62,916 nucleotides of DNA, from the NCBI GenBank assembly GCA_944329365.1, contig CALVIC010000004.1:1-62916 (forward strand). Reading direction: 5' to 3'. The notes below the pieces were generated by a model. It made no database searches. It was not told the origin of the DNA and saw only the letters and a list, made by a program, of their open reading frames with translations. The translations under genes were made by a program, and so were the position numbers. Source of the stretch: an uncultured Bacilli bacterium. Lineage in GTDB: Bacteria; Bacillota_I; Bacilli_A; RF39; UBA660. Below, piece after piece: positions 6,676 to 25,138 of this stretch (the first letter of the stretch is position 1; each line of letters begins with the position of its first letter).

Positions 6676-6699
6676 ATTTTGTAATTAATAATTTTTATA

Positions 6700-6960: not shown

Positions 6961-6972
6961 TTTAAATCTTAT

Positions 6973-7048
6973 GCTTGATTAGCTCAGTTGGTAGAGCAAG
7001 CGGCTGTTAACCGCTGGGTCGTAGGTTCGAGTCCTACATCAAGCGCCA
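6973..7048 (+). tRNA. tRNA-Asn (anticodon GTT), copy 1
   Basis: Acceptor GCTTGAT/ATCAAGC, D-loop AGTTGG variant, anticodon loop CT-GTT-AA, discriminator G, encoded CCA. Confidence 0.95.
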
Positions 7049-7056
7049 CTTTATTT

Positions 7057-7132
7057 GCTTGATTAGCTCAGTCGGTAGAGCAAGCGGCTGTTAACCGCTG
7101 GGTCGTAGGTTCGAGTCCTACATCAAGCGCCA
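7057..7132 (+). tRNA. tRNA-Asn (anticodon GTT), copy 2
   Basis: Same as copy 1 except the D-loop reads AGTCGG. Confidence 0.95.
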
Positions 7133-7142
7133 CTTTATTTTT

Positions 7143-7218
7143 GCTTGATTAGCTCAGTTGGTAGAGCAAGCGGCTGTTAACCGCTGGGTCGTAGGTTCGA
7201 GTCCTACATCAAGCGCCA
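7143..7218 (+). tRNA. tRNA-Asn (anticodon GTT), copy 3
   Basis: Identical to copy 1 (AGTTGG D-loop). Confidence 0.95.
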
Positions 7219-7226
7219 CTTTATTT

Positions 7227-7302
7227 GCTTGATTAGCTCAGTCGGTAGAGCAAGCGGCTGTTAACCGCTGGGTCGTAGGTTCGAGTCCTACATCAAGCGC
7301 CA
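7227..7302 (+). tRNA. tRNA-Asn (anticodon GTT), copy 4
   Basis: Identical to copy 2 (AGTCGG D-loop). Confidence 0.95.
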
Positions 7303-7351
7303 TCTTTTTTTGTATGTTTTAAAAAATTATATAGATGTGGAGGAATAGTTT

Positions 7352-7648
7352 ATGCAGAAGTTTACTAAGGAAATGGTTGACGATTATGCAGATAAACTGC
7401 TAATTGGTTTAACGGAAGAGGAAAATAAAATGGTTTTAGATGAATTTGAGGTTATCGATGCGACTATCGATATGATTAATGAAATTCCAAATATCGAAAA
7501 TGTTGAACCGATGACGCATGCTTTAGATGATTTTGAATATGTGCTTAGAGAAGATGAGCCGGAAGAGTCTGTGCCGATTGAAGATTTACTTGCTAACTGC
7601 GATGATCATACAGATAGAGAAGTACAAGTACCAAGGATGGTGGGTTAA
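7352..7648 (+). CDS. gatC: Asp-tRNA(Asn)/Glu-tRNA(Gln) amidotransferase subunit C
   Basis: 98 aa, immediately upstream of gatA and gatB, typical GatC sequence (VEPMTHALD); RBS GGAGGAA. Confidence 0.9.
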   Translation: MQKFTKEMVDDYADKLLIGLTEEENKMVLDEFEVIDATIDMINEIPNIENVEPMTHALDDFEYVLREDEPEESVPIEDLLANCDDHTDREVQVPRMVG

Positions 7649-9106: not shown

Positions 9107-10564
9107 ATGAATTACAAGGTAATGATCGGTCTTGAGATGCACTGCGAGATTAGTAAGACAAAGACTAAGGTATTTTCAAGTGCGAAGAATTCATTTAGTG
9201 AAACTCCTAACTGTAATGTTAGACCTGTGGATATGGCTTTTCCTGGTACTTTACCGGTTGTCAATAAGGAAGCTGTTAAAATGGCCCTTATGGCAAGTAT
9301 GATTTTAGGGTGCACGCAACCAGAGTATTTATATTTTGAAAGAAAGAATTATTATTATCCGGATTTACCAAAAGGTTTTCAAATTACGCAGGAAACTAAA
9401 CCCGCACCAGTTGGAAGTTATGGTAAGCTTACTTACGAGTGTAAGGGTGAAAAGAAAACAGTTAGAATAAATAATTTACATTTAGAAGAGGATGCTGCTT
9501 CTTCTGATCATTATACTAGTTGTTCAAGAATTAATTACAATAGAGCAGGAGTTCCTTTACTTGAGCTTGTTACGGAACCTGATTTTCATTCAGCTGATGA
9601 GGCAGTTGCTTTCTTAGAAGAGATGAGGAGTATTTATCAGTATGCAGGTATTTCTGAGGCTGATAGCAAAAAAGGTCAAGTTAGATGTGATGTCAATGTA
9701 TCTATTATGGATAAGAATTTGGATGATAGTGACCCAAATAACTGGGGAACTAAGGTTGAAATTAAAAACGTTAATTCATTTAGCGGAGTTAGAGATGCCA
9801 TAAACTATGAGATTCAAAGACAAATTGATTTGAAAGAAGACGGTAAATATGATGAGATGCCTCAGCAAACTCGTAGATGGGATGAGGAAAGTGCATCTAC
9901 AATATTTATGCGTGGAAAGGTCGATGCAATCGATTATAAGTATTTTGTCGAGCCTAATATTCCAAAGTTTAAGATTTCTAAAGAATGGCTTGAAGAAATT
10001 AGAAAGTCTATACCGATGCTTGCTCACGAGAGAAAAGATATGTATATGAAGGAATACGGAATTTCTGAATACGATGCTAGTATTTTAGTTAAGGAAAAAC
10101 CGGTAGCTGATTTCTTTGAGGAGACTTTAAATTTAGGAGCTAATCCAAAGAGTGCGTCTAATTGGATTACGACTAATTTACTTGGTAATTTAAATAAAAT
10201 GGAAATTACAATTGAAGAGTCTAAACTTACTCCTAGTCATTTAGCTGAACTTATTAAAATGGTCGAGGATGGAGAGATTTCTTCTCAGCAGGCTAAGGGT
10301 GTGTTTACCGAAAGTTTAGAGAGTGGTAAGAGTCCGAAGAAGATTGCTTCAGAAAAGGGGCTTAAACAGATTACGGATACTAGTGAGATTGAAAAAATCG
10401 TCAATGAAGTTTTGGATGAAAATCCTGATATTATCGAGCAATATAAGAATGGTAAAGTAGCTATGGTTAATTATTTAGTTGGCCAGGTTATGAAGAAGAC
10501 TCACGGAACGGCTAATCCAAGTTTAGCTCGTGATGTGATGGCCAAAGAGATAGAGAAGAGGTGA
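9107..10564 (+). CDS. gatB: Asp-tRNA(Asn)/Glu-tRNA(Gln) amidotransferase subunit B
   Basis: N-terminus IGLEMHCEI, NLHLEEDAAS, C-terminal YqeY-like tail; start abuts the gatA stop. Confidence 0.95.
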   Translation: MNYKVMIGLEMHCEISKTKTKVFSSAKNSFSETPNCNVRPVDMAFPGTLPVVNKEAVKMALMASMILGCTQPEYLYFERKNYYYPDLPKGFQITQETKPAPVGSYGKLTYECKGEKKTVRINNLHLEEDAASSDHYTSCSRINYNRAGVPLLELVTEPDFHSADEAVAFLEEMRSIYQYAGISEADSKKGQVRCDVNVSIMDKNLDDSDPNNWGTKVEIKNVNSFSGVRDAINYEIQRQIDLKEDGKYDEMPQQTRRWDEESASTIFMRGKVDAIDYKYFVEPNIPKFKISKEWLEEIRKSIPMLAHERKDMYMKEYGISEYDASILVKEKPVADFFEETLNLGANPKSASNWITTNLLGNLNKMEITIEESKLTPSHLAELIKMVEDGEISSQQAKGVFTESLESGKSPKKIASEKGLKQITDTSEIEKIVNEVLDENPDIIEQYKNGKVAMVNYLVGQVMKKTHGTANPSLARDVMAKEIEKR

Positions 10565-10568
10565 TATT

Positions 10569-12311
10569 TTGAATATTTATAGAACACAGTATAATAAAGA
10601 TCTATCTGAAGATTGTATCGGAAAAGAGATAAGAGCTTGCGGGTTTGTCGAGAATATTCGTGATCATGGAGGGGTTATATTTGTCGATGTTCGTGATGAG
10701 ACAGGAATGCTGCAAGTTGTAAGTAATGACGATAAGATGTTTGAGGGTTTAACTAAAGAGTCAGCGGTTACTTTAAAGGGTACGGTTCGAATGAGAGACG
10801 AAGAGAATTTCAATCCAAAGATTAGTACTGGAACAATCGAAGTTTTAGCTTCAGAGTTTAAAGTTTTAGGTAAAGCTAATAACGAACTTCCTTTTGAAAT
10901 AATTACTTCAAAGAATGTTAATGAAGAAGTTAGACTTAAATATAGATATTTAGATTTAAGAAATCCAAAGGTTCATGAGGTTATTAAGTTTAGAAGTGAA
11001 GTTATCAAGTTTTTGAGAAATAAAATGGATAGTTTAGGTTTTACGGAGATTCAAACACCAATTTTAACAGTTTCTTCTCCAGAAGGCGCGCGCGATTATT
11101 TAGTTCCTTCTCGTAAATATAAAGGTAAGTTTTATGCACTTCCACAAGCACCACAACAATTTAAACAACTTTTGATGGTTGCTGGATTTGATAAATATTA
11201 TCAAATCGCTCCTTGTTTTAGAGATGAGGATGCTAGAGCTGATAGATCACCGGGTGAGTTTTATCAACTTGATATGGAAATGGCTTTTGCGACAGCAGAA
11301 GATGTATACGAGGTATCTGAAGAGGTTGTTTACGAGACTTTTAAAAAGTTTTCTAATAAAGAAGTTTCTCCAAGACCGTTTAAGAGAATTCCTTATAGAG
11401 AAGCAATGCTTAAGTATGGTACTGATAAGCCTGATTTAAGAAATCCACTTGAAATTATAGATTTAACTGAGGTATTTAAAAATACAACTTTTAAACCTTT
11501 TTCTGGTTCATGTGTTAGAGGTATTACAGTTCATGATATTGCTTCTAAGCCAAATTCTTGGTTTAACGAGCTTGTTGCATATGCGTCAAGTATTGGAATG
11601 CCAGGTATTGGATATATAAGCGTTTTAGATGATATGAGTTTTAAAGGACCTATTGATAAGTTTTTAACTGATGAAGAGCGAAAGGGACTTATAGAAAAAG
11701 CTTCTTTAAAGAAAGGCTCAGTACTATTCTTTATTGCCGATAAGAAGGAAAAAACAGCTTCAATTCAGGCAGGAATGATTAGAACAGAGCTTGGTAAGAA
11801 GTTAGATCTAATTGATAATAACAAATTTGAATTCTGTTTTATTACAGATTTTCCGATGTATGAATACGATGATACTTTGGGAAAATATATATTTATGCAT
11901 AATCCATTTAGTATGCCAAAAGGCGGACTTGAAGGACTTGATAATCCAAATATAGAAGATATTTTAGCTGATCAATATGATATCGTGTGCAACGGCGTGG
12001 AGCTTTCTTCTGGAGCTGTTAGAAATCACGATGTAGCAGTTATGGAAAAAGCGTTTGAGATAGCTGGTTATACTAAGGAAGATGTAAAGAATAGATTTAA
12101 ATCCTTATATACAGCTTTCCATTATGGGGCACCACCTCATGCAGGTATCGCACCAGGTATTGATAGAATGATTATGCTACTTAAAGATGAGCCAAATATT
12201 AGAGAGGTTATTGCATTTCCACTTAACAGTAATGCTCAAGATGTGATGATGGACGCACCTTCAGAAATTAGTGAGGCTCAGCTTAGAGAGGTTCATATTA
12301 AGATTAGATAA
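10569..12311 (+). CDS. aspS: aspartate--tRNA ligase, bacterial type. I infer it is non-discriminating from its context
   Basis: Class IIb motifs (FYALPQAPQQFKQLLM, CFRDEDARADR, GIAPGIDR). TTG start 4 nt after gatB. Confidence 0.9.
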   Translation: MNIYRTQYNKDLSEDCIGKEIRACGFVENIRDHGGVIFVDVRDETGMLQVVSNDDKMFEGLTKESAVTLKGTVRMRDEENFNPKISTGTIEVLASEFKVLGKANNELPFEIITSKNVNEEVRLKYRYLDLRNPKVHEVIKFRSEVIKFLRNKMDSLGFTEIQTPILTVSSPEGARDYLVPSRKYKGKFYALPQAPQQFKQLLMVAGFDKYYQIAPCFRDEDARADRSPGEFYQLDMEMAFATAEDVYEVSEEVVYETFKKFSNKEVSPRPFKRIPYREAMLKYGTDKPDLRNPLEIIDLTEVFKNTTFKPFSGSCVRGITVHDIASKPNSWFNELVAYASSIGMPGIGYISVLDDMSFKGPIDKFLTDEERKGLIEKASLKKGSVLFFIADKKEKTASIQAGMIRTELGKKLDLIDNNKFEFCFITDFPMYEYDDTLGKYIFMHNPFSMPKGGLEGLDNPNIEDILADQYDIVCNGVELSSGAVRNHDVAVMEKAFEIAGYTKEDVKNRFKSLYTAFHYGAPPHAGIAPGIDRMIMLLKDEPNIREVIAFPLNSNAQDVMMDAPSEISEAQLREVHIKIR

Positions 12312-12335
12312 TATGAACTTTTTTTCATAAATTAA

Positions 12336-12363
12336 TTGACTTTGTTTTGTTTTAGTTTATACT
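12336..12363 (+). promoter_or_regulatory. sigma-A-type promoter candidate
   Basis: TTGACT (12336-12341), 16-nt spacer, TATACT (12358-12363), upstream of the vWA gene. Confidence 0.5.
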
Positions 12364-12388
12364 AGATGCTGGTAAATGGAGGTGGACA

Positions 12389-13174
12389 ATGGGAACTTTA
12401 AAAAAAGAAAGCAATGACAATTTAATAAAAATAAAAGACGAGATTGACTTAGACATTAATAATATAAAAATGTTTTTAAGTTCTGAAGTAGAGGGATGTG
12501 CGGAAGCTGAACTTGATTTGACTATTAAGAATTTTTTTAAAAAGAGTATAGATGTAATGTTTGTTTTTGACAGAAGTGGTTCTTGTGCGGGTACAGAAAT
12601 TGATATGATTAGAGGATTTAATAGTTTTATTAAACACGAAAAAGAAAAGAAAAACAATGATTTTATTACGGTGTCTTTATTTAATCAGGAAAATAAGATT
12701 GTGTATGATAGAGCTTCAACAAATAAAATTAGCGAATTTGAGTATCAAGTTTATGGGAATACAGCTCTTTATGATAGTGTGTGCGAAGGGCTTATGAGAC
12801 TTCAAGAAAATCATGATGATACAGAAGTTATAGTTGTTATTATGACTGATGGTGAGGATAATTCAAGTTATAAATATGATGTTAATATGACAAAAGAACT
12901 TATTTCAAGTCTGAAAAATCAAGGGTGGCATTTTATCTTCTTAGGCGCAATGGACTATGCAAAAAAATATGCATCTTTGCTTGGAATTGATAAAAAATAT
13001 GCGGAAATTTACAGTCCTGAGGCAGTATACATGAACTTTAAAGCTATCGAAAAAGTTGTCGATGATGTTCATGATCGTGGTAAGGTTAGTGAAGATTGGG
13101 CAGAGTCAGTTATTGATGCAAGATATCAGATTGAAGGTAGAAAAGATAGTCATGTTAAAAGACTTGGAAGATGA
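12389..13174 (+). CDS. cytosolic von Willebrand factor A (vWA) domain protein
   Basis: MIDAS residues DRSGS, GNTALYD and MTDGEDN. No signal peptide. RBS GGAGGTGG. Confidence 0.8.
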   Translation: MGTLKKESNDNLIKIKDEIDLDINNIKMFLSSEVEGCAEAELDLTIKNFFKKSIDVMFVFDRSGSCAGTEIDMIRGFNSFIKHEKEKKNNDFITVSLFNQENKIVYDRASTNKISEFEYQVYGNTALYDSVCEGLMRLQENHDDTEVIVVIMTDGEDNSSYKYDVNMTKELISSLKNQGWHFIFLGAMDYAKKYASLLGIDKKYAEIYSPEAVYMNFKAIEKVVDDVHDRGKVSEDWAESVIDARYQIEGRKDSHVKRLGR

Positions 13175-13209
13175 AAATAAACAATTTATTTTAAGTAGGA
13201 GAAAATTTA

Positions 13210-14004
13210 ATGAGAAGTGATTTTAAAGATTATTATAAGATACTTGATGTTTCTAAAAATGCTACTTCGGATGAGATAAATAGGGCTTTTAGGAAGTTGT
13301 CTCGTAAGTATCATCCTGATATTTCAAAAGAAGAGAATGCGGAAGAGGTTTATAAAATAATAAATGAGGCGTATGAGGTTTTAGGTGATGAAGAAAAAAG
13401 ACGGGAGTATGATTTTCTTTATCATGATTATTTAAATTATTTTAATTCAGATTTTAGAGATGAGAAGGAACGAGTTATATTAAAGGTTCAAATCGTTAAG
13501 ATTTTAAAAGTATGTGATTTTTTAAATAAAGAATACGAGATTATAATGAATAATAATACAGGTGAAGATATAAAGAAAAATATCGAAAATTTAAATGAAT
13601 GTTTAGCTTTTATAAATAAGAAAATTAAATTTTTAATAGAAAATTTATCTTCAAATAATTTAACTCAAGAAAAAAGCTTATTAATAGAAAAATACAGGTA
13701 TAATATTGAATGTATCAATAATTTAAAGGTTAAACTTTTAGAGAGATATAATGATTTAATTTTGTGCTACATTGATCAAATAGATTATTTTATATTATCT
13801 GTAAATAGTAATTCTTATGAAAAAATTACAAAGCTTAAAGTGGAAATTGATGATTTTGTAATGGAACTTAATGATGTGAATGCCTTTGATATTCAAGATA
13901 ATTTGATAAAACTTAAACAACGCATCACTTTATTAGATAATTTACTTTTAACGATAGATGATAGGAAGAAAGATAATACAAAAGTTAAAAAATTACATTT
14001 ATAA
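13210..14004 (+). CDS. J-domain protein with an Asn/Ile/Leu-rich, coiled-coil-like C-terminal region
   Basis: DYYKILDV...YHPD...[16 protein letters not shown] (HPD motif intact). No DnaJ Gly/Phe or zinc-finger regions. Starts 35 nt after the vWA gene. Confidence 0.85.
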
Positions 14005-14133
14005 TGTTTTAATGATTATTTTTTTGAAAATTTGGTTAGATTTTTTTCATTCGGACAAAATAACGGTACGTTCAGACATGGATGTATTTTTATTTTTAAT
14101 TTTACGTTATACTGAATAAAGTAGGTGGGTTTT

Positions 14134-14670
14134 ATGTTAGAAGAAGATAGATGTAAAAAATGCGGAGCTAAGTTAGTCCATGGACAGTGTTTTGATTGCA
14201 AAGATTTAAAGGTTATCGAAAAGGGTTATATTATGGTAATCAATAAGGATGATCAAAAAATTTACAATAAAAGGTTTGAGGTGATGTATAATAACAAAGA
14301 TTTTATTTTGTCTTTTGTTTTAGGCCTGATGTATGCTTCTTTTAGTGGTCATATAATAATTGGAATGAGCGGAGCGTTTATCGATGTTTTACTTGTTTGG
14401 TTATTTTCGATAATTATGAGAGCAGATGTATTTGTTACAATAGTTTTTGCTGGATGCTTTTTGATTTTTAGGATTATATGTGGGTTTGTTTTAAATAAGG
14501 TTTGTATTCAGGTTGATCAGGTGAAGATAAACAAGATAAAAGTAAAGTACCGAAAAGGTTATAAACAGGTTTTAAAAAGCCACAATCCCGATGGAAAGAT
14601 TTATTTAGTTAGTACACTTATATTATTTGTGTCTTTACTTTGTGGACTATTTTGGTTTAGGTTGTCATAA
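14134..14670 (+). CDS. membrane protein with an N-terminal zinc ribbon
   Basis: CKKCGAKLVHGQCFDC (CxxC-x7-CxxC) followed by about 4 hydrophobic helices. I chose the ATG at 14134, which has RBS AGGTGG. Confidence 0.65.
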   Translation: MLEEDRCKKCGAKLVHGQCFDCKDLKVIEKGYIMVINKDDQKIYNKRFEVMYNNKDFILSFVLGLMYASFSGHIIIGMSGAFIDVLLVWLFSIIMRADVFVTIVFAGCFLIFRIICGFVLNKVCIQVDQVKINKIKVKYRKGYKQVLKSHNPDGKIYLVSTLILFVSLLCGLFWFRLS

Positions 14671-14686
14671 GTTTTATTAGAATTTA

Positions 14687-14717
14687 GAAGTCAAGCTTTT
14701 GATTGTTTGACTTTTTT
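14687..14717 (+). terminator. rho-independent terminator
   Basis: Stem AGTCAA / TTGACT with a 12-nt loop, then TTTTTT. Confidence 0.55.
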
Positions 14718-14733
14718 GCGTAAAGGAGGGTCT

Positions 14734-15735
14734 ATGAAAAAGATTGCAGTTTGCTTGCCAAGCTATAATGAAGAGGACAATATCGAAAATATTACGATGA
14801 AAATTGATAAGGCATTAAGAAGTGTGAGTAAGAATTATAGATGTGTGATTGTAAACTGTGATAGTGGTAGTACTGATAAGACAAATGAGATTTTTAGAAA
14901 TCTTAAGACGAGGGTAAAAAAGATATCTATCTTAAATAAGGAGAAAGGTAAGGGCGTTAATATTATAAGTTTTATGGATTATTGTTATAAAAATAATATT
15001 GATTATGCTTTTACTTTTGATGCGGATTTGACTAGTTTTGAAGAGGAGTGGATTTATAAAATTTTAGATAAGCTTAAGGATAATGATTTTGTGGTTCCAA
15101 TTTATAAAAGACGAAGGTATGAGGGAAATACAACAAATCATTTGATGATCCCACTTATTTATTATTACTACGGAGTGATAGTTAGACAACCGATAGGTGG
15201 TGATTATGGATTTAACAAAAGTTATATAAAAAAATTTCAAAAGTATAAAACTGATTTTATTAGAGGTTACGGAATAGATATTTTTATGTTTTTATTAGCT
15301 TTAAAGGAAGTCCGAGTTAGTGAAGTAAGTCTCGGTTTTAAAAGACATAAACCTAGTTATGGAAAGATGGAGAAGATTTTTAAAGAGGTTTTAATAAGTT
15401 TTGATAAAACGAGAAAGTATTTAGGCGATATAGATAATATTAGTTTTAGTGGTGAGGGCATACTTTCAATCGATTCTTCGTTAGATGAAGAGTTTTATGA
15501 TCATTATCGGGTCCGAGATACTTATAATTTTAAGTTGGAAGAGAGTAATTGGGTTTTAACTTTAAAGAAGTATTTGAATTATTCGAGGATAGATAATTTA
15601 TCTGAATTTTTGATAAGTTTTAAGTGCTACACAAGAGCTTATTGGAGAGAGTTTAAGGATAAGAGCCCTGAGGAGTGTGAAAGACAGATTTACGATTTAG
15701 CTTATTTATTAAAGGAGGAAAAGGTGTGCTTATAA
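14734..15735 (+). CDS. GT-A fold glycosyltransferase (GT2 / GpgS-like)
   Basis: IAVCLPSYNEEDNIE N-terminus, DADL (DxD), RRRYEGNTTNHL segment. I chose the ATG at 14734 with RBS AAAGGAGGG, because the track start at 14707 lies in the terminator. Confidence 0.8.
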   Translation: MKKIAVCLPSYNEEDNIENITMKIDKALRSVSKNYRCVIVNCDSGSTDKTNEIFRNLKTRVKKISILNKEKGKGVNIISFMDYCYKNNIDYAFTFDADLTSFEEEWIYKILDKLKDNDFVVPIYKRRRYEGNTTNHLMIPLIYYYYGVIVRQPIGGDYGFNKSYIKKFQKYKTDFIRGYGIDIFMFLLALKEVRVSEVSLGFKRHKPSYGKMEKIFKEVLISFDKTRKYLGDIDNISFSGEGILSIDSSLDEEFYDHYRVRDTYNFKLEESNWVLTLKKYLNYSRIDNLSEFLISFKCYTRAYWREFKDKSPEECERQIYDLAYLLKEEKVCL

Positions 15736-16916
15736 TTAGAGATGATTATGTTAGTCCAGAAGATAATTTAATAGAGATTACCGAAAGAAAAGGTATTGGA
15801 CACCCTGATACTTTAGCGGATATGCTAGCCCTTGAATGTTCAAAGGCTTATGCTAAATTTTGTCTTAAAAATTATGGCTGTGTTTTACATTATAATTTGG
15901 ATAAGCTTTATATTGGTGCTGGACTTTTTAAGTATGAAAGAGGGAGGGTTATAAAGAAAAGTAATATTATAGTTAATTTAAATGGAAGAGTTACAAATTC
16001 GATGAATGGCGAGATGATAGATTTAGATTCTATTTTTAAACCGGTTATAAAGAAGTATTTGAAAACGGTTTTACCGAGGCTCGATGTGGAAAATGATTTA
16101 ACGATAAATATAAATTCGACGCAGAATACAAAAAGAGATTATTGGTATAGTCCAAGAGATATCAACGATGTTCCAGATTATAAAAATGTGACGGCGGGCG
16201 ATACGGCTTTATGTGTGGCTCATGGTGATTTTACTTTTTGCGAGAGGCTTGCTTTATATTTAGAAAGCATTTTATATGATAAGACTATAGAAGGTTATAT
16301 GAGTCCTAAATATAAGGATATAGGACAAGATATAAAGTTTATGGTTTCAAGAATTGGCAAAAAGGTTGAGGTAACTATTTGTCTTCCAGTTTTGAGAGGT
16401 TGCTACAAAAATGATATGGAGTACGATAAGATTATTAAAAAATATGAAAGAATTTTTTATAAATCTTTAGATAATTTCGATAATCCTAGGGGATATCAGG
16501 TTGTCATTCGAGTTAATTACAAGGATGATGGAATGATAGATAAGTATACTTTATGTATTGGAACTTGCGCGGAATGTGGGGAGGAAGGAATTGTCGGTAG
16601 AGGTAATGATGGCCAAGGACTTATTTCAGCGTTTAGGCCACATACTGTCGAGGCGCCGTTTGGAAAAAATGTGAGATATCATACAGGTTATGTAGTTTCT
16701 TTTATGGCTCAAAGAGCGGCTTCGAGGATATACAAGGAACTTGGGGTAAAATGTATGATTTATGCAATAACAAGAAACCGTAATTCTTTATATGATCCTT
16801 ATGTGTTTTATTTGAGTGTCGATAATAAACAGGATGAAGGGAAGATAAGAGAGATTATTTTATCTGAATTCAACAAGGATTATTTAGATAAGATTTTTGA
16901 AAAGGAGCTGGTTTAA
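15726..16916 (+). CDS. archaeal-type S-adenosylmethionine synthetase (MAT) homologue
   Basis: ERKGIGHPDTLAD, LHYNLDKLYIGAG, IGQDIKFMV, GTCAECGEEGIVGRGN and FRPHTVEAPFGKN match, from memory, the conserved blocks of Methanocaldococcus-type MAT. GTG start overlaps the GT gene by 10 nt. Confidence 0.75.
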   Translation: MLIIRDDYVSPEDNLIEITERKGIGHPDTLADMLALECSKAYAKFCLKNYGCVLHYNLDKLYIGAGLFKYERGRVIKKSNIIVNLNGRVTNSMNGEMIDLDSIFKPVIKKYLKTVLPRLDVENDLTININSTQNTKRDYWYSPRDINDVPDYKNVTAGDTALCVAHGDFTFCERLALYLESILYDKTIEGYMSPKYKDIGQDIKFMVSRIGKKVEVTICLPVLRGCYKNDMEYDKIIKKYERIFYKSLDNFDNPRGYQVVIRVNYKDDGMIDKYTLCIGTCAECGEEGIVGRGNDGQGLISAFRPHTVEAPFGKNVRYHTGYVVSFMAQRAASRIYKELGVKCMIYAITRNRNSLYDPYVFYLSVDNKQDEGKIREIILSEFNKDYLDKIFEKELV

Positions 16917-17870
16917 GTGGAGGAGTTTTGTTTAGAGAGCTGCGGAGCTAAATGTGCGGTTATAAGTGATCAAAATTTAAGAGAGTTTTTCGAGAAAAAC
17001 AAAGATTATATGAATATTCCGGATTTAAAAACTCTGGACGATAGTTTTAAAGCAAAAGATGTGTTTATTTATTTAGATTGTAAACCTTCTGAAGAGGCGA
17101 TTAAATGCGGAGAGAACTGTATTTATATGCGTTATCCGAAGAGTGAGCTTACTGACTCTAATATTGCTTATGTTGTTCGTTATTTACTTGAAAAGCAATA
17201 TGGTGAAGATAACAAAGCTACTTGTCATTCGGCATGTGTATCAAAAGATGGCTATGGTATTTTGCTTTTGGGCGGGGCAGGTAGTGGTAAAACTAGTATG
17301 GCGGTTAATATGTGCCTTCAAAAAGGTTATAAGCTTGTCAGTAATGATCAGACAGTAATTGGACTTTTTAATAACAATTTATATGCTTACGGAGGAACGA
17401 AGTTTATTAATTTTAGGTATTCTTCAGTTACGGAAAATATGCCTTATTTAGAGAAGAGGATTTTTCCGGAGATTCCCGAGGATGTGTGGAATGAAAAGAA
17501 GCTTGTTTTAGGAAAAGACGTGGGAATGGAATTAGAAGATAGACCGGTTTTGATTAATCAGGTGGATGTTATTCAAATTGATAACAGAAAAAAGAGGCTT
17601 GGAGTTAAATCGGGAGAGAGCTGGAAGAATAACTTTTTACTTTACAATATTCTTTCAGAAAATATTAGAAATACGACGTCAACTATCGTCGATAAAAGAG
17701 GTAAACCAATCGGTTATGTTCCTTCATATGATAGCGAAGAGCTTTTTAAAAGTAGATGTGAAATGATGAAGATTATAAATAATAGTTGTTTTGATGTTTT
17801 AAGTGGTCCACTTGATAAGGCGATAGATTATATAGATAATAAAAATAAAATTTTGAGAAAGGAGATGTAA
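16917..17870 (+). CDS. HPr-kinase C-terminal-like P-loop protein
   Basis: HSACVSKDGYGILLLGGAGSGKTSMAVNMCLQKGYKLVSNDQTVI parallels the HprK Walker A region and the following xxADD. GTG start lies directly after the MAT-like stop. Confidence 0.65.
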   Translation: MEEFCLESCGAKCAVISDQNLREFFEKNKDYMNIPDLKTLDDSFKAKDVFIYLDCKPSEEAIKCGENCIYMRYPKSELTDSNIAYVVRYLLEKQYGEDNKATCHSACVSKDGYGILLLGGAGSGKTSMAVNMCLQKGYKLVSNDQTVIGLFNNNLYAYGGTKFINFRYSSVTENMPYLEKRIFPEIPEDVWNEKKLVLGKDVGMELEDRPVLINQVDVIQIDNRKKRLGVKSGESWKNNFLLYNILSENIRNTTSTIVDKRGKPIGYVPSYDSEELFKSRCEMMKIINNSCFDVLSGPLDKAIDYIDNKNKILRKEM

Positions 17871-17872
17871 AT

Positions 17873-18364
17873 ATGCGAGATATTAAGTTTAAAGAAGGGG
17901 ACGATTTATTCAATTATAGAGTAGCGGCAATTATCGAAAACAAGGGTAAATATTTATTCCAAATAATGCCTGGCGATGAGTGTTTTACTTTAGTTGGAGG
18001 TAGAGTCCGGTTTATGGAAACTTCTAGGGATGCTTTAATAAGGGAAGTTTTGGAGGAGACTGGCTATGACATCAGTAGAGCGGAGATAAAACTTTCACTT
18101 ATTGCCGAAAATTTTTTCGATTATAAAGATAAAAATGAGGTTGTACACAACGTTCAGACTTTACTTTTTGTTTATAAGGTAGATATCGATGAAGACGTGA
18201 TTAAGGAGAAAAGTTTTGTAATGAAAGATAAGGATGATACAACTTTAAACTGGGTAAGTTATGATGAGGCCAAAAAGGCTGAGATATTACCGGAGACGGC
18301 AAAACGTATTTTAGATGACGATTGTTTAAAATATGAACTTATAAATGACAGGCAATTTAGTTAG
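17873..18364 (+). CDS. NUDIX hydrolase
   Basis: Nudix box GGRVRFMETSRDALIREVLEETGYD. ATG 2 nt after the preceding stop. Confidence 0.85.
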   Translation: MRDIKFKEGDDLFNYRVAAIIENKGKYLFQIMPGDECFTLVGGRVRFMETSRDALIREVLEETGYDISRAEIKLSLIAENFFDYKDKNEVVHNVQTLLFVYKVDIDEDVIKEKSFVMKDKDDTTLNWVSYDEAKKAEILPETAKRILDDDCLKYELINDRQFS

Positions 18365-18399
18365 AATATATAAAACTGTGAAAGATTCAATAAAAAACT

Positions 18400-18426
18400 C
18401 GTTTTTCCTTTAAAAAACGGTTTTTT
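18400..18426 (+). terminator. rho-independent terminator
   Basis: Stem CGTTTTT / AAAAACG with a 6-nt loop, then GTTTTTT. Confidence 0.65.
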
Positions 18427-18466
18427 ATTATAATATAAGTCTTAAACAAAATAATTTTACCATAAT

Positions 18467-18493
18467 AAAAAGCCTAATAAAGTTTGGCTTTTT
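18467..18493 (-). terminator. rho-independent terminator (usable in both directions)
   Basis: Stem AAAAAGCC / GGCTTTTT with an 11-nt loop, directly after the stop of the minus-strand ORF. Confidence 0.6.
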
Positions 18494-18495
18494 GG

Positions 18496-19019: not shown

Positions 19020-19658
19020 ATGGAATATGAAGTTAGATTTTATTTTCCTAGTGAGGAATATGATAATATTATTCAAAAGCTTAGTAAAATAGGTGATTTG
19101 AAAAAAGAGAATAAGAGATACGAAAAAACGTCACAGTTTGATCATCCTTGTGATGATATGAGTTTTTATACTAAAGAGATTGACGGAAGATTTAGAATAA
19201 GAATTACTAAAAGTGACGATACCGAAAAATGTATGATTAGCTGGAAGAGAAGGCTTCATTCACCTTCTAAGAGTGAAGTAAATAGGGAGGAAGAGGTAGA
19301 AGTTTCAATTAATTACGGCGAATATGATAATTTGATGTATTTAATTAACAATGTTTTAAAAATGAAAGATATTGAAAGTTATGAAAGATATAGAACTATT
19401 TTTCATGATGAGGATGTGGAGATTGCTGTAGATGAGTATCCGTTTGGAATAGCATTAGAAGTTGAGAATAAAAGTGAGAGAAATGATCCACAAGAAGTTG
19501 TTAGGAAATGGGTAGGTAAAATAGGCCTTGATATAAAAGATGCTTATCCTCTATCATGGGATGATAAGTATTCAGAACTGTGCCGAAATCAAGGGGTAAA
19601 ACAATATAGTCATGTTACTTTTGATCTTCCAATGCCAAAGGTAATTAACAAGAAGTAA
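19020..19658 (+). CDS. CYTH-domain protein (triphosphate tunnel metalloenzyme / CyaB-like)
   Basis: N-terminal EYEVRF (ExExK-type strand), RFRIRI, ISWKRR, EEEVEVSI, YERYRTIF and VEIAVDEYPFGIALEVE follow the order of CYTH beta-strand motifs. Confidence 0.7.
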   Translation: MEYEVRFYFPSEEYDNIIQKLSKIGDLKKENKRYEKTSQFDHPCDDMSFYTKEIDGRFRIRITKSDDTEKCMISWKRRLHSPSKSEVNREEEVEVSINYGEYDNLMYLINNVLKMKDIESYERYRTIFHDEDVEIAVDEYPFGIALEVENKSERNDPQEVVRKWVGKIGLDIKDAYPLSWDDKYSELCRNQGVKQYSHVTFDLPMPKVINKK

Positions 19659-19681
19659 TTTAGGTGTATGGAGGTGTTTTA

Positions 19682-20227
19682 ATGAAGTGTATAAAAACTT
19701 TAGTAGATGAGGATTTTGGTTTAAAATCAATTAATTTTGATAATCCTCGAATAAGATATGGGGCTAGAGGTATTATAATTGGTTTTGATGGGAAAATAGC
19801 AATTTTTAATAAGATTAAGAAAGGTGAATATAAATTGCCTAGTGGGGGCATAGATGAAGGAGAGAGTCCAGAGGCCGCTTTTAAAAGAGAAGCTTTAGAA
19901 GAAACTGGATGTGAGATTGAGATAATAAAATTGCTTGGTACGATAGAAGAGGATAAGAGCTTGGATAATTTTAAACAGATTTCATATGTGTTTGCGGCGA
20001 AGGTTGTTAATGATGGTCATTGTTTGAATTTAACCCAGAAAGAAAGGGATGAAGGTGCTAGACTTCTTTGGGTTAAAGATAGCGATGCTTTAAAGCTTAT
20101 TACGAACTGTTATGATAAATTAAAAGCTTCAGAATATGAAAATTTATATCATAGTAAATTTATTGTTATGAGAGATAAATATATAATGGAGTATTATTTA
20201 AATAATAAGGGAGAAATTTTAAAGTAA
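19682..20227 (+). CDS. NUDIX hydrolase
   Basis: Nudix box GGIDEGESPEAAFKREALEETGCE. I chose the ATG at 19682 with RBS GGAGG, 23 nt after the CYTH gene. Confidence 0.85.
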   Translation: MKCIKTLVDEDFGLKSINFDNPRIRYGARGIIIGFDGKIAIFNKIKKGEYKLPSGGIDEGESPEAAFKREALEETGCEIEIIKLLGTIEEDKSLDNFKQISYVFAAKVVNDGHCLNLTQKERDEGARLLWVKDSDALKLITNCYDKLKASEYENLYHSKFIVMRDKYIMEYYLNNKGEILK

Positions 20228-20366
20228 ATTTTTATTTTTTGTTATAAAGACTTTTGTTTTTAAGACTTTTTTGATATATTATTATAGAAACAGCTAGAAT
20301 ATTTGAAGATTTAATTTTGCATTTTTATGAGTGCAAAATTCTTTGCGTTTATAGAAAGGAGTGTTT

Positions 20367-22409
20367 ATGGAAGATTTTGAGTTAGAAAAGAAACGTTTAG
20401 CTTGGACTTTAGATGAGTATGAGGAGATTATTTCAGATACTGATTTAAAGATACGAAATTTACCTAATTTTTATAAGGGCGATTACGATAAGATGATGGA
20501 AGAAAAAGCGAGACTTTTAGGTAAAAAGGATGTAATCCAAAGAAGTATGGATAAGCCATATTTTGCGAGAATTGATTTTGAAAAGGCATCTGATAAAACT
20601 AAAGATGTGTGTTATATCGGAAAAGTTGGAGTTATTAATTATGACAAAAAAATAATAACGGTAGACTGGAGGGCACCTATTGCTAGTTTGTATTATGATT
20701 CTAATATCGGCAAGACCTCTTATTTGGCTCCAGAAGGTGAGATTTTTGGAAGTTTACTTACTAAAAGGCAATATGAAATTGAAAAGGGAGAGCTTATAAG
20801 TTTTAGTGATGTGGATACTGTAAGTAATGATGAGCTTTTAAAACCTTATTTGGGTGTTAGTGCGGATAAGAGACTTAAAAATATAGTGGCAACGATTCAA
20901 AGTGAGCAAAATAAAATTATAAGAAGGAATATGAAAGACAATTTAATAGTTCAAGGGGTAGCTGGTAGTGGTAAAACAACAGTTGCCCTGCACAGGATAG
21001 CTTATTTAGTTTACAATAACCGGGATTTGTATAAACCGAGTAGATATATGGTTATTGGACCGAATAAGTTTTTTGTCGATTATATCGCAAATATTTTACC
21101 GGATTTAGATGTTCATGGGGTTTGTCAAAACACTTTAGAGGAGATGGCAATTAGATATTTAAACGAGGATTTAAAGGTTTACAGCTGTTTAAAGATAACC
21201 GATGTTGGAGGTAGAGCTAGTTACATTACTTCTTTAGATTTTAAAGAGGTAATAGATAAATACTTTAGAGATTATACCGATAATTTAATTCCAGATAGGG
21301 ATTTAGTTTATAAGGATTTTAAGATAGTGGGTTATGAGAAGATAAGAGATATATACACGGGAATAAATAAGGAGACTCACAGAAATTTAAGCGTGAGATG
21401 TGAGAAGACGATAGCTACTTTAGAGAAGGAAATAATTAGATATAAGGATATTATTTTACAGAGGTTACTCGATAAGAGTTTAAAAGAGGATGATATAAAA
21501 AAGATTAAAGATAGAGAACTTTTAAAGAAAGAGCTTGGTACAGGTGGCAGTAATATTTTAAAAGGTTATTTTAAAAAGCTTTTAAAAACACCTAGAGAGA
21601 TATATGCAGAAATTATTAGAAATGAGTTTAGTGACAAAGAAAAGGTAAAAGAAATTTTAAGAGGAGAGGTTAATATAGAGGATTTAACTCCACTTATGTA
21701 TATTAATTATTTACTCAGTGGTTCTTTAGACTTTGATAAGTTTAAGCATGTTGTTATCGATGAGGCTCAGGATTACAATACTTTTACTTTTTATGTTTTA
21801 AAGAAGATTTTGAAAAATGCATCATTTAGTATTTATGGCGATTTAGCTCAATCATTATATGAATATAAAAGTATTAAATCGTGGGATCAAGTTAAGGATG
21901 CGCTTGGGAATTGTGAGCTTCTCAATTTAGAAAAGAGTTACAGAACAACAATTGAAATAATGAATGAAGCTAATAAGATAAATAAATATTTAGGTTATAT
22001 TTTAGCAGTTCCAGTAATTAGGCATGGGGAAGAAGTTCAGTATATTAAAAGCAGAAACATTAAGGATGACATAATTAATATAGTTTCTGAGATGAAAAAT
22101 AAAGGTTTTCAAAGTATTGCGATAATTACAAAAGATGAAGTACAAAGTAGAGTGGTTTATGATTTTGTTAAAGATAAGTTACAAGTTAAAAAAATAAGTG
22201 ATGATGATTTAAAATTTGAAGAAGGGGTATGTATTATTCCAAGTTATTTAGCTAAAGGTCTTGAGTTTGATGCGGTTATTATTCCGGATGTTCAAGATTT
22301 TGATGAGAATAATAAAACGGATATGAAACTTTTATATGTTTCAATGACTAGGGCATTACATGTGTTAAATATTTTGTATGATAAAGAGGTACCTTTAGTA
22401 CTTAGATAA
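20367..22409 (+). CDS. helD: HelD-type UvrD-like helicase (RNA polymerase recycling ATPase)
   Basis: KPYFARIDF, VDWRAPIASLYYD, NIVATIQSEQNKIIR and LIVQGVAGSGKTT match, from memory, B. subtilis HelD (SPYFGRIDF, DWRAPISSLYYD, SIVATIQKEQNRIIR, LIVQGAAGSGKT). C-terminal KSYRTT and LAKGLEFD are helicase motifs. Confidence 0.85.
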   Translation: MEDFELEKKRLAWTLDEYEEIISDTDLKIRNLPNFYKGDYDKMMEEKARLLGKKDVIQRSMDKPYFARIDFEKASDKTKDVCYIGKVGVINYDKKIITVDWRAPIASLYYDSNIGKTSYLAPEGEIFGSLLTKRQYEIEKGELISFSDVDTVSNDELLKPYLGVSADKRLKNIVATIQSEQNKIIRRNMKDNLIVQGVAGSGKTTVALHRIAYLVYNNRDLYKPSRYMVIGPNKFFVDYIANILPDLDVHGVCQNTLEEMAIRYLNEDLKVYSCLKITDVGGRASYITSLDFKEVIDKYFRDYTDNLIPDRDLVYKDFKIVGYEKIRDIYTGINKETHRNLSVRCEKTIATLEKEIIRYKDIILQRLLDKSLKEDDIKKIKDRELLKKELGTGGSNILKGYFKKLLKTPREIYAEIIRNEFSDKEKVKEILRGEVNIEDLTPLMYINYLLSGSLDFDKFKHVVIDEAQDYNTFTFYVLKKILKNASFSIYGDLAQSLYEYKSIKSWDQVKDALGNCELLNLEKSYRTTIEIMNEANKINKYLGYILAVPVIRHGEEVQYIKSRNIKDDIINIVSEMKNKGFQSIAIITKDEVQSRVVYDFVKDKLQVKKISDDDLKFEEGVCIIPSYLAKGLEFDAVIIPDVQDFDENNKTDMKLLYVSMTRALHVLNILYDKEVPLVLR

Positions 22410-22995: not shown

Positions 22996-23089
22996 GGAGT
23001 AGTACTCAAGTAGGCTGAAGAGGCGCCCCTGCTAAGGGTGTAGATCGGGTTAAACTGGTGCGAGGGTTCGAATCCCTCCTACTCCGCCA
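22996..23089 (+). tRNA. tRNA-Ser (anticodon GCT)
   Basis: Type II tRNA with a long variable arm, acceptor GGAGTAG/CTACTCC, anticodon loop CT-GCT-AA, encoded CCA. Confidence 0.9.
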
Positions 23090-23197: not shown

Positions 23198-25138
23198 ATG
23201 AATAAAAAAACAGTAATTGTATTAGTGGCAGCGGTAGTAGTGTTAATTATTGCTGTATTTAGAATTTTCGGAATGCAAACAGAGGGAGAAAACGAAGTAG
23301 AAAATGTTGTTTCTTTGATGGAGAAGCAAATTCAGGATGAAAATAAACTGAAAATATCAGGTTATACTTTAGATGATCCTAATGTGGTTTTAAATCCTTA
23401 TGAAATTTCACCTTTAACGGCTTTAGTAATATTTGAAACGGATGAAGAAGTAAGTCCCGAAGTGACAATTCATGGCGATTCAGATCTTACGACATATACA
23501 CATACTTTTACTAAGGGAACAGAACATTATTTGCCGATTTATGGACTTTATGCGGGAAGAGAGAACAAGGTTACGATTAAATGTGGCGATAAAGAGAAAG
23601 AACTTACGATTAAGACTGATGAACTTCCTGACGATTTTATTTTACCAACTAGTGTTAAAAAGGATGAGAGTAAACTTAATAACGATTTGTATTTTTATAC
23701 GCCATCTAGTTTTGGATATACGGCGGCTTACGATGTTAATGGTGATGTTAGATGGTATTTAACAGAGTCAGCTATTTGGGAAATTAACAGACTTGATAAT
23801 GGGAGACTTTTAGTTAGTACAGAAAGGCTTGCCGAGGTTCCTTATTATTCGACTGGCTTATACGAAATGGATATGCTTGGAAAGATATATACTGAATACA
23901 GTTTGCCTGGCGGTTATCATCACGATTATTATGAAATGGAAAATGGTAATTTGCTTGTGGCTTCTGATGATTTTAATAACGATTCGGGAACGGTTGAAGA
24001 TTATGTGGTTGAAATAGATAGAAAAAATGGTAATATTGTTAAAACTTTTGATTTGAAAGACATTTTAAAAATGACTGATGGCCAGAGCGAAAATTGGATA
24101 GAATATGATTGGTTCCACAATAATTCTGTGTGGTATGATAAGAAGACTAATTCAATTACTTTATCTGGAAGGCATCAGGATGCGGTTATCAATATCGATT
24201 ATGATACTGGCAAGCTTAACTGGATACTCGGTGATCCTGAGGGATGGAGCGATGAGTATCAAAAATATTTCTTTAAACCAGTAGGAGATAATTTTGAATG
24301 GCAATGGTCACAACACGCGGCAATGATTACGCCAGAAGGTTATGTATTCTTGTTTGACAATGGGAATAATAAATCAAAGAATGAAGATGAATATGTGGAT
24401 TCGGCCGATAGTTATTCAAGAGGGGTTATGTATAAGATTGATACTGATAAAATGACTATTGAACAAGTATGGGAATATGGAAAAGAGAGAGGTAGTGATT
24501 TTTATTCTCCTTATATATCTGATGTTGATTATTTAGATAAAGATCATTATATTGTTCATTCAGGTGGTATTTCTTATAAGGATGGAAAAATTCAAAATCA
24601 GCCAGCTGGTTTAGCCGGAGCGGATACTTTAAAAAGCGATACAGTAGAGCTACTTAATAATGAAGTGATATTTGAAATGATTTTGCCTACTAATAATTAT
24701 AGAGTTGAAAAGATGAGTTTATATAGTGATGATGAGTTTGAACTTGGGGTTTCAAAGGAACTTGGTAGTTTAGGCGTTACCGATACTGAGGATGAAAAAT
24801 TTACGCTAATGAGTAATGCTAAAGAGCAAGACGATAATTACAAGTCTCACGATATTTCCATAAAGAAGGAAAAAGATAGACTTGCGGTAACTGGAACGTT
24901 TGAGAGAGGAACAGAGGTTAAGATTATTTTATACAAGGATATGATGGAGAAAGTTTATAATATGAGAATAAGTACACGTCCTTATACGGCTTTGTGTGTC
25001 GATCTTGGTAATAATAACGACAGCGATGATTTAACAGTTACGAAGTATATTAATAGTGATGGTTTGATTGGTAAATATACAATATTTATCGAAATCGATG
25101 GAGTAATTTATAAAACTGACGAATATGTTTCATTTTAA
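23198..25138 (+). CDS. membrane-anchored arylsulfotransferase (ASST)-family beta-propeller protein
   Basis: N-terminal TM helix; GGYHHDYYEMENGNLLV, WFHNNSVWYD, LSGRHQDAVINIDYDTGKLNWILGDPEGW. Confidence 0.7.
   Translation: MNKKTVIVLVAAVVVLIIAVFRIFGMQTEGENEVENVVSLMEKQIQDENKLKISGYTLDDPNVVLNPYEISPLTALVIFETDEEVSPEVTIHGDSDLTTYTHTFTKGTEHYLPIYGLYAGRENKVTIKCGDKEKELTIKTDELPDDFILPTSVKKDESKLNNDLYFYTPSSFGYTAAYDVNGDVRWYLTESAIWEINRLDNGRLLVSTERLAEVPYYSTGLYEMDMLGKIYTEYSLPGGYHHDYYEMENGNLLVASDDFNNDSGTVEDYVVEIDRKNGNIVKTFDLKDILKMTDGQSENWIEYDWFHNNSVWYDKKTNSITLSGRHQDAVINIDYDTGKLNWILGDPEGWSDEYQKYFFKPVGDNFEWQWSQHAAMITPEGYVFLFDNGNNKSKNEDEYVDSADSYSRGVMYKIDTDKMTIEQVWEYGKERGSDFYSPYISDVDYLDKDHYIVHSGGISYKDGKIQNQPAGLAGADTLKSDTVELLNNEVIFEMILPTNNYRVEKMSLYSDDEFELGVSKELGSLGVTDTEDEKFTLMSNAKEQDDNYKSHDISIKKEKDRLAVTGTFERGTEVKIILYKDMMEKVYNMRISTRPYTALCVDLGNNNDSDDLTVTKYINSDGLIGKYTIFIEIDGVIYKTDEYVSF

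Follow-up and report, generated by a model that had tools for sequence, protein, structure and literature searches.

An operon encoding an archaeal-type methionine adenosyltransferase paralogue in an uncultured Bacilli bacterium: a candidate minimal form of a conserved biosynthetic cassette

The window analysed here is the whole 62,916-nucleotide stretch of contig CALVIC010000004.1 (assembly GCA_944329365.1) from an uncultured Bacilli bacterium of the RF39 lineage UBA660. Its positions 14734-18364 hold a four-gene operon that encodes a glycosyltransferase (GT), a homologue of archaeal methionine adenosyltransferase (MAT), a P-loop protein resembling HPr kinase (HprK) and a Nudix hydrolase. An earlier note, made from the sequence alone, had drawn attention to the tight packing of these genes between two terminators and had suggested that they form a pathway making or editing a nucleoside- or sugar-phosphate-derived small molecule, or modifying a macromolecule, with a housekeeping MAT as the alternative. 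The genes, and the hairpins that bracket them, are as follows.

14734..15735, + strand: GT gene, 333 aa
15726..16916, + strand: MAT homologue gene, 396 aa
16917..17870, + strand: HprK-like P-loop gene, 317 aa
17873..18364, + strand: Nudix gene, 163 aa, with a complete Nudix box
14686..14717, + strand: upstream AT-rich hairpin and U-run, 11-bp stem, -12.2 kcal/mol, z -3.8 by folding
18390..18428, + strand: downstream AT-rich hairpin with flanking A/U runs, -11.2 kcal/mol, z -4.5 by folding

The overlapping and abutting junctions described in the earlier note are exactly confirmed by the list of open reading frames (ORFs) and by reading of the sequence. The GT and MAT ORFs share 10 nt, the HprK-like gene opens with GTG at 16917 immediately 3' of the MAT stop, and the Nudix ATG at 17873 lies 2 nt past the HprK-like stop at 17870; the four genes (14734-18364) are translationally coupled, and a GGAG-type Shine-Dalgarno sequence can be read 5-10 nt 5' of all four starts. 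For the GT we favour ATG 14734, with AAAGGAGGG upstream, over TTG 14707, the mechanical start of the ORF, because the TTG sits within the upstream hairpin. Folding and the adjoining U-runs also bear out both bracketing terminators, despite their being missed by a consensus terminator scan, which overlooked them because the stems are AT-rich with fewer than three G-C pairs. None of 200 shuffles reaches a folding equal to that of the hairpin at 18390-18428, which is the operon terminator; the convergent minus-strand gene has a hairpin of its own at 18466-18494. The upstream hairpin is either the intrinsic terminator of the preceding gene or, possibly, a leader element of the operon. Its U-run ends about 16 nt before the GT start codon, a sigma-70 scan found no convincing promoter in between, and the region upstream of the operon has no Rfam match to a riboswitch or leader RNA, S-adenosylmethionine (SAM) riboswitches included. 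Transcription may reach the operon by read-through from the gene for a zinc-ribbon membrane protein at 14125-14670, or the hairpin at 14686-14717 may act as a leader. The zinc-ribbon gene is syntenic in L001 and L002, labels of this kind (L001, L003, L089 and so on) denoting the relative loci compared with the window.

All of the motifs that had been quoted for the four proteins are present. The second protein, described at the outset as an archaeal-type MAT homologue without the bacterial MetK signature, is indeed so: it gives a full-length family match to PF01941 in Pfam (1.4e-61, 209 bits against a cutoff of 27), its closest alignment in the PDB is with MjMAT over the whole length (7p82, 2e-45), it carries ERKGIGHPD (20-28), LHYNLD (54-59), GTCAECGEEGIVGRGN (279-294) and FRPHTVEAPFGKN (303-315), and the MetK signature is absent. 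It falls below the cutoffs of all five curated NCBIfam MAT models, the best being NF003362 at 292 against 481. Its relatives number at least 154, with identities of 36-97 %, and almost all of them come from uncultured Bacillota/Bacilli, from Patescibacteria or from actinomycetes. The window protein is 96 % identical to its counterpart on DVFV01000122 (Candidatus Coprosoma intestinipullorum), and the window is a piece of chromosome from a relative of this uncultured low-GC gut bacterium.

The distribution of these relatives was followed by scanning 185,579 species genomes with the family alignment, after which 80 further PF01941 loci were fetched and the partner genes sought by profile. Partner genes lie beside only a subset of the fetched loci, and in a neighbour-joining tree the partner-linked MATs form a single clade, apart from the archaeal MATs and from two partnerless bacterial PF01941 clades. 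Within the clade an HprK-like gene stands beside the MAT gene at 19 of the 20 loci that have enough flanking sequence, usually with a GT gene adjacent as well, and these 20 informative loci span small-genome Bacilli, Clostridia, several Patescibacteria, Moorena, Streptomyces and Nocardia. At 54-65 % MAT identity the gene order GT-MAT-HprK-like-Nudix is seen again among wholly different neighbours; counting the window with L001 and L002 as one context, the four-gene form is found in at least four unrelated flanking contexts, the other three being these.

L003/L004: four-gene form, with Lon upstream
L005: four-gene form, with a radical SAM gene upstream and RF-1 downstream
L089: four-gene form, with LigA upstream and an AMP-binding gene downstream

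At 37-49 % MAT identity the Nudix gene is gone and the GT, MAT and HprK-like genes are retained together, in an uncultured Clostridium, several Patescibacteria lineages, two Streptomyces, S. nogalater and Nocardia wallacei. Nealsonbacteria have this core of three genes as well. Thus, of the four genes that the earlier note had treated as one unit, the GT, MAT and HprK-like genes are inherited together across phyla, and the Nudix gene accompanies them only in a Bacilli sub-lineage. The long versions are compact operons of CofE-like, MAT, HprK-like, HD, GT, AroE-like, AP_endonuc_2/GFO-IDH-MocA fusion and MBL genes, in which the CofE-like protein scores 235 bits with TIGR01916 (cutoff 180.65) and the AroE-like one likewise exceeds the cutoff of TIGR00507; no CofE, AroE, IolG-like, MBL, HD, HIT or APH gene of these long cassettes was found elsewhere in the window.

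The sole outlier is L070 of Enterococcus rivorum, a cultured species, which has an HprK-like neighbour and a MAT that falls outside the clade. Its PF01941 protein keeps the canonical Asp discussed below and has W and N at two carboxylate contacts. Besides the HprK-like gene, the cluster (6922-15842 of the locus) holds genes for a myo-inositol-1-phosphate-synthase-like protein, two APH kinases, NTP_transf_5, a HAD phosphatase and a PHP domain protein, and it is akin to the cassette of the clade without being the same. The two further bacterial PF01941 clades (L015, L018, L025 and L027-L050 of actinomycetes; L016-L034 of the candidate phyla radiation (CPR) and others) keep the canonical Asp and Asn among their methionine contacts and lack any HprK-like or GT partner within 8 kb, and one of them is widespread in Streptomyces, a genus that has MetK besides.

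The active site of the clade was examined by mapping the substrate contacts of TkMAT, with residue roles as given in PMC3853416, onto 89 family sequences and then onto 116 clade sequences. Residues equivalent to the catalytic His, the triphosphate ligands and the ribose-binding Asp201 (H26, R21/K22/D28/D32, K204, R292, K314 and D202) are invariant in the clade, the adenine-stacking Y274 is Tyr in 115 of 116 members and Phe in the other, and the carboxylate-binding His62/Asn64 of TkMAT are kept as the clade-invariant His55/Asn57. The remaining methionine contacts are another matter. TkMAT Asp283, which contacts a ribose hydroxyl and the methionine amino group (PMC3853416), is replaced by Glu286 in 17/17 and then 116/116 clade relatives, whereas Asp occupies this position in 72/72 sequences outside the clade (71 from the three other groups, together with L070). 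The equivalent of Asn161 is distributed as N64/A29/G16/S7 across the clade and is Gly158 in the window, and that of Leu145 is Ile in the window, with Lys or Arg at this place in roughly 17 % of the relatives. A comparison of the methionine and ATP sites, which had been suggested from the start, therefore gives a divided answer: the ATP-binding and catalytic residues are kept, but the methionine contact set is incomplete. Judged by its catalytic residues, every one of which is retained, the paralogue is a predicted adenosyltransferase in which part of the methionine site departs from that of TkMAT.

The clade motif is G[ST]C[IA]ECGEEG, read in the window as GTCAECGEEG. Two cysteines, C281 and C284, flank the active-site Glu and are kept in about 107 of 116 clade members; the corresponding positions are Ser and Asn/Met/Ala in archaeal MATs, and the pair could be a metal or redox site. 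Compared with the archaeal enzymes (MjMAT, TkMAT and SsMAT; PF01941, NCBIfam PRK04439), the window protein thus shares the whole-length alignment, the catalytic His, the triphosphate Lys/Arg/Asp, the stacking Tyr, the ribose Asp202 and His55/Asn57. It differs in belonging to a separate bacterial clade whose members are clustered with partner genes, in the Glu for Asp283, in the relaxed Asn161 and Leu145 contacts, in C281/C284 and in an 8-residue insertion in the gating loop.

These observations bear directly on the simplest alternative, that the PF01941 gene is the organism's sole MAT and that its neighbours are unrelated, adjacent by chance or through operon economy. In its favour, no canonical MetK was found in the 63-kb window, the only part of the genome searched, the catalytic residues are all intact, PGAP labels some of the relatives 'methionine adenosyltransferase', and the flanks consist of housekeeping genes. 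Against this, the clade is tied to the same partners across phyla with changing flanks, its Asp-to-Glu change and relaxed methionine contacts are clade-wide, the curated MAT equivalog models all score under cutoff, and the Rfam search found no SAM riboswitch. Moreover, in the Shapirobacteria locus L013 a canonical MetK lies beside the cassette (9085-10152, minus strand; 46 % identity with the E. coli enzyme across 372 aa), and the clade is present in Streptomyces, Nocardia and Moorena, actinomycetes and cyanobacteria that are expected to carry MetK. Because of these last two findings it is unlikely that the clade, and with it the window gene, serves housekeeping alone, and as an explanation of the operon as a whole we regard such a role as quite improbable. 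The Shapirobacteria locus is also an instance of both MAT types coexisting in a reduced genome (Candidatus Shapirobacteria).

The first protein, which had been recognized as a GT-A enzyme with a DxD motif, holds up as such, with a match to PF00535 at 1.8e-14 (Pfam) and the DxD present as DAD at 96-98. Its AlphaFold2 model (predicted local distance difference test score (pLDDT) 93, predicted TM-score (pTM) 0.92) includes a C-terminal helical domain, and no transmembrane (TM) segments or interface helices were found in it. The top Foldseek matches are to mannosylglycerate synthase (MgS) of Rhodothermus marinus (2y4j and 2bo4; query TM-score 0.72-0.74 over about 385 aligned columns, the C-terminal helical domain included), and mycobacterial glucosyl-3-phosphoglycerate synthase (GpgS) comes next, with a root-mean-square deviation (rmsd) of about 3 A at about 20 % identity. 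Residues were mapped to MgS by profile alignment, with invariance judged over 27 family members and residue roles read from the GpgS/MgS structure paper (PMC2581804), in which the acceptor-carboxylate Thr is T139 of MgS and T187 of GpgS and the metal-binding His is His217 of MgS. Invariant counterparts were found for Lys76 (K73), Asp100/Asp102 (D96/D98), Arg131 (R126), Thr139 (T134), Asp192 (D182) and His217 (H205), and the QPLGG loop of MgS is QPIGG at 152-156. Arg131 is presumably a second acceptor-carboxylate residue of MgS. Most of the GT homologues carry PF21969 (MGS_GT). By its fold and hallmark residues the window protein is a predicted soluble retaining GT-A of MgS/GpgS type in which the nucleotide-sugar, metal and acceptor-carboxylate sites are intact, and because it is of this type we infer that its acceptor is a small alpha-hydroxy-carboxylic acid.

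The likeness to MgS (GT78) and GpgS (GT81) thus extends to the full-length fold, the DxD, the Asp-Lys-Asp network, the metal His and the acceptor-carboxylate Thr/Arg, although the window GT is only 13-21 % identical to these enzymes and lies far under the curated GpgS cutoff. The two-step logic of GpgS followed by its phosphatase GpgP is echoed in some of the relatives: three CPR/Patescibacteria homologues are fused to a histidine-phosphatase domain (His_Phos_1 in Nealsonbacteria), and this domain we take to belong to the family of the mycobacterial glucosyl-3-phosphoglycerate phosphatase. A sugar-phosphoacid phosphatase partner is absent from the window, and other versions of the cassette have HAD, PHP, HD or MBL enzymes. 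None of the known glycosylglycerate pathways, however, is linked to a MAT paralogue and an enzyme of the PEPCK/HprK fold.

The same structural evidence addresses the possibility that the GT is a family 2 enzyme whose product is a polyprenyl-phosphate sugar or a decorated teichoic acid or lipid, with the other genes supplying precursors for a cell-envelope glycoconjugate. Its top sequence-level matches in the PDB are GtrB, DPMS and ArnC, and JGI tags some homologues as 'involved in cell wall biosynthesis'. Foldseek, however, places MgS and GpgS first, and the polyprenyl-phosphate enzymes align with an rmsd of 14-16 A, on which ground that assignment was rejected; the absence of TM or interface helices and of linked flippase, polymerase or lipid-carrier genes likewise makes an envelope role very improbable.

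For the third protein the sequence evidence is weaker and the structural evidence has altered the description. The match to PF07475 (HprK_C) has an E-value of 1e-05 and 25.6 bits, under the cutoff of 33.3, and TIGR00679 gives 29.2 bits against 240, so that of the four Pfam families expected for the operon PF01941, PF00535 and PF00293 are significant and PF07475 is sub-threshold. The P-loop motif GGAGSGKTS (119-127) is followed by SND (142-144), and H104, G119, G122, G124-K125-T126-S127, N143-D144, R167, D222 and R251 are invariant in the family, in the register H104, GxxGxGKTS, N143-D144 that is found in HprK/P; we take H104 and D144 to be the equivalents of His140 and Asp179 of the L. casei enzyme. 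The AlphaFold2 model (pLDDT 93, pTM 0.89) finds ATP-dependent phosphoenolpyruvate carboxykinases (PEPCKs) as its best Foldseek matches (E 3e-9, query TM-score 0.45-0.48, both domains aligned), ahead of HprK/P (E 3e-7 to 1e-5), with a probability of 1.0 for both. The designation 'HprK-like kinase' is thus borne out for the Walker A region and the fold, but PEPCK is structurally the closer relative. With HprK/P and ATP-dependent PEPCK the protein shares the P-loop domain, the upstream His and the downstream Asp, and its two-domain architecture aligns with PEPCK, whereas the alignment with HprK/P has a TM-score of only 0.25-0.28 of the query and the Pfam score is below cutoff.

An exhaustive profile search of 1.84 billion representatives returned 139 clusters of the family at E<=1e-30, a number that rises to 590 at <=1e-10, and the top 150 matches contain no fusions, all being stand-alone proteins of 124-372 aa and mostly about 300-340 aa. 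No ptsH, crh or other phosphotransferase system (PTS) gene was found in any of the examined loci. From the predicted structure the protein is best regarded as a probable stand-alone two-domain phosphotransferase of the PEPCK/HprK superfamily, and nothing ties it to HPr.

HprK/P phosphorylates HPr, and HprK-like kinases phosphorylate lasso-peptide precursors. In the same way the P-loop enzyme might phosphorylate Ser or Thr of a ribosomal peptide or protein, which the GT would glycosylate, with the MAT feeding SAM to radical-SAM or methyl chemistry. Weak HprK_C and 'ScmC' (PF27840) annotations on homologues, weak NCBIfam matches to HprK-related kinases A and B, a radical SAM/SPASM pair upstream in L006, and the second HprK-like gene, NTP_transf_5 and M16 peptidase that are added in actinomycete versions would all fit such a scheme. 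Nevertheless, the GT retains the acceptor-carboxylate residues and the full-length fold of MgS/GpgS-type enzymes, the kinase is closer to PEPCK, a small-acid enzyme, than to HprK/P, and the recurrent accessory genes (CofE, AroE, IolG-like and phosphatases) encode small-molecule enzymes. Among the called genes of the four-gene loci we found no PqqD/RRE, precursor-peptide or protease gene, small ORFs not having been searched exhaustively. Unlike the HprK-related peptide kinases and 'ScmC', then, the window protein is in neither an HPr/PTS nor a ribosomal-peptide context, and modification of a peptide or protein seems unlikely.

The fourth protein has the complete Nudix box claimed for it, in which GX5EX7REUXEEXGU is matched by GRVRFMETSRDALIREVLEETGY, and it matches PF00293 at 9.7e-10 (39 bits, cutoff 21.1); no characterized close relative was found in the PDB. 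Orthologues follow the HprK-like gene only in L001, L003/L004, L005 and L089, and elsewhere this position is taken by a SpoT-type HD protein (HD_4) or a HIT protein. The Nudix gene is therefore a lineage-specific fourth gene of the window's Bacilli sub-lineage, outside the conserved core, and the occurrence of three unrelated nucleotide-hydrolase folds in one slot suggests a nucleotide-linked intermediate or by-product.

Downstream of the operon lies a CYTH gene (19020-19658; borderline, PF01928 23.6 bits against a cutoff of 23.2), which the earlier note had speculatively connected with the MAT by way of tripolyphosphate. Synteny lends this link no support. The CYTH gene, a second Nudix gene that starts 5 nt after it (19664-20227) and a UvrD/HelD-like helicase gene with weak GajB-type PADLOC matches (the three spanning 19020-22409) recur at no locus but L001, which is 96 % identical to the window, and the gene that follows Nudix in L003 and L005 belongs to an unrelated 212-219-aa family, so the link was rejected. 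The same neighbourhood might have suggested a nucleotide-signalling or anti-phage module in a defence island, composed of an adenosyl-derivative synthase, a kinase and Nudix/CYTH degraders: two Nudix genes, the CYTH gene and the UvrD/GajB-like helicase lie within 4 kb, and the Nudix proteins match PADLOC PDC-S07 weakly. This is exceedingly unlikely, as the CYTH, second Nudix and helicase genes are not co-conserved with the operon and the flanks at other loci are housekeeping genes; with PADLOC returning nothing for the GT, MAT and HprK-like proteins, a defence system was rejected.

On all this evidence we consider it somewhat probable that a conserved cassette for the biosynthesis of a soluble small molecule has spread horizontally and that the operon represents its minimal form, specific to Bacilli. 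In the pathway that we propose, the GT would transfer a hexose from a nucleoside diphosphate sugar to the 2-OH of a small alpha-hydroxy-carboxylic acid of glycerate, 3-phosphoglycerate or lactate type, and the P-loop enzyme would make or re-phosphorylate either the acid or the glycoside, with ATP as donor or possibly the pyrophosphate freed by the MAT reaction. The MAT paralogue would transfer the 5'-deoxyadenosyl group of ATP to methionine or a methionine-like amino acid, and would in this way furnish the pathway with its own SAM or SAM-like compound, as co-substrate or as building block. The Nudix protein would clear a nucleoside-diphosphate-linked by-product or intermediate, as the HD or HIT hydrolase would in other lineages, and in the longer cassettes the product would be elaborated further by a gamma-glutamyl ligase of CofE type, a dehydrogenase of AroE type, an inositol-dehydrogenase/isomerase-type fusion protein and phosphatases. 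The overall product would be a glycosylated, transiently phosphorylated small organic acid. Of the broad proposal in the earlier note the dedicated, co-conserved unit survives, and its range of nucleoside- or sugar-phosphate-derived and macromolecular products narrows to a small alpha-hydroxy-acid glycoside.

Several points weigh against this pathway, the lack of a MetK gene in the window being among those already given. The window GT lies under the curated cutoffs (47.8 against 262 for NF010496 GpgS, and 24.2 against 27 for PF21969 MGS_GT), as the P-loop protein does for HprK_C. The pairwise distances of GT, MAT and HprK-like proteins are correlated (r = 0.84-0.93 over 13 loci), but such correlations are also expected from shared phylogeny and linkage. 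At the clade locus L091 a Pol-beta-type nucleotidyltransferase of 236 aa and a 188-aa protein (8196-9557) stand in place of the HprK-like gene, and the Moorena locus L012 has no recognizable GT within 8 kb. 3-Phosphoglycerate requires no dedicated kinase, which leaves the substrate of the P-loop enzyme unexplained, and we know of no precedent for an adenosyltransferase in a glycosyl-acid pathway, so that the logic joining the three enzymes is conjecture. L091 keeps the GT, SDH, AP_endo/GFO fusion and MBL genes.

A bolder form of the small-molecule reading, which we put forward tentatively and think rather doubtful, is that the paralogue, with GEEG for GDDG and relaxed methionine contacts, makes no SAM and instead adenosylates another methionine-like acid. 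The GT and the PEPCK-fold kinase would then glycosylate and phosphorylate the adenosylated acid or a partner acid, giving a new adenosyl or sulfonium glycoside, cofactor- or signal-like, common to Patescibacteria, small-genome gut Bacilli, actinomycetes and cyanobacteria and gamma-glutamylated by the CofE homologue in longer cassettes. The assembly of the coenzyme F420 tail, in which the gamma-glutamyl ligase CofE acts on a phospho-lactyl/glyceryl carboxylate, offers a partial parallel, in that the CofE of extended cassettes adjoins an enzyme whose predicted product is an O-substituted alpha-hydroxy acid, the chemical type that CofE extends; in contrast to F420 assembly, the extended cassettes have no FO synthase, CofC or CofD genes and the window lineage has no CofE-like gene. 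We found no description of the cassette in the searchable literature, which omits most subscription journals.

The wider neighbourhood of the operon consists of housekeeping genes, among them gatCAB, aspS, tRNA arrays and T-boxes. After a T-box leader at 6699-6941 (151.7 bits) come four tRNA-Asn(GTT) genes in tandem (6973-7302) and then a gatC-like ORF (7352-7648), gatA, gatB and aspS, so that the entire indirect Asn-tRNA route, tRNA genes included, appears to lie behind a single T-box (region 6699-12311). Directly 5' of the operon (12389-14670) are genes for a vWA-domain protein, a DnaJ-domain protein with a long coiled C-terminus and the multi-pass zinc-ribbon membrane protein, and relatives of these are also found upstream in L002. 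On the other side, an arylsulfotransferase gene (ASST, PF05935, 6.6e-106; 23198-25138), whose product has an N-terminal Ig-like domain, comes after a tRNA gene at 22996-23086. GC skew is very strong and uniform over the window (1-62916; 0.25-0.46 per 2 kb), and almost every ORF of at least 120 aa is on the + strand, in keeping with a stretch of leading strand in the chromosome of a low-GC member of the Bacillota.

MAT is usually treated as a single-function housekeeping enzyme, and a clade with a fixed active-site change and two constant partners would, if our reading is true, be a rare case of MAT neofunctionalization or of a dedicated, pathway-specific supply of SAM. The retention of the cassette in extremely reduced genomes, such as those of Patescibacteria and Coprosoma-like gut Bacilli, suggests that its product is important to them. 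It would offer a three- or four-gene handle on a new metabolite in microbial 'dark matter', and would provide the first functional context for the stand-alone PEPCK/HprK-fold family with its several hundred sequence clusters.

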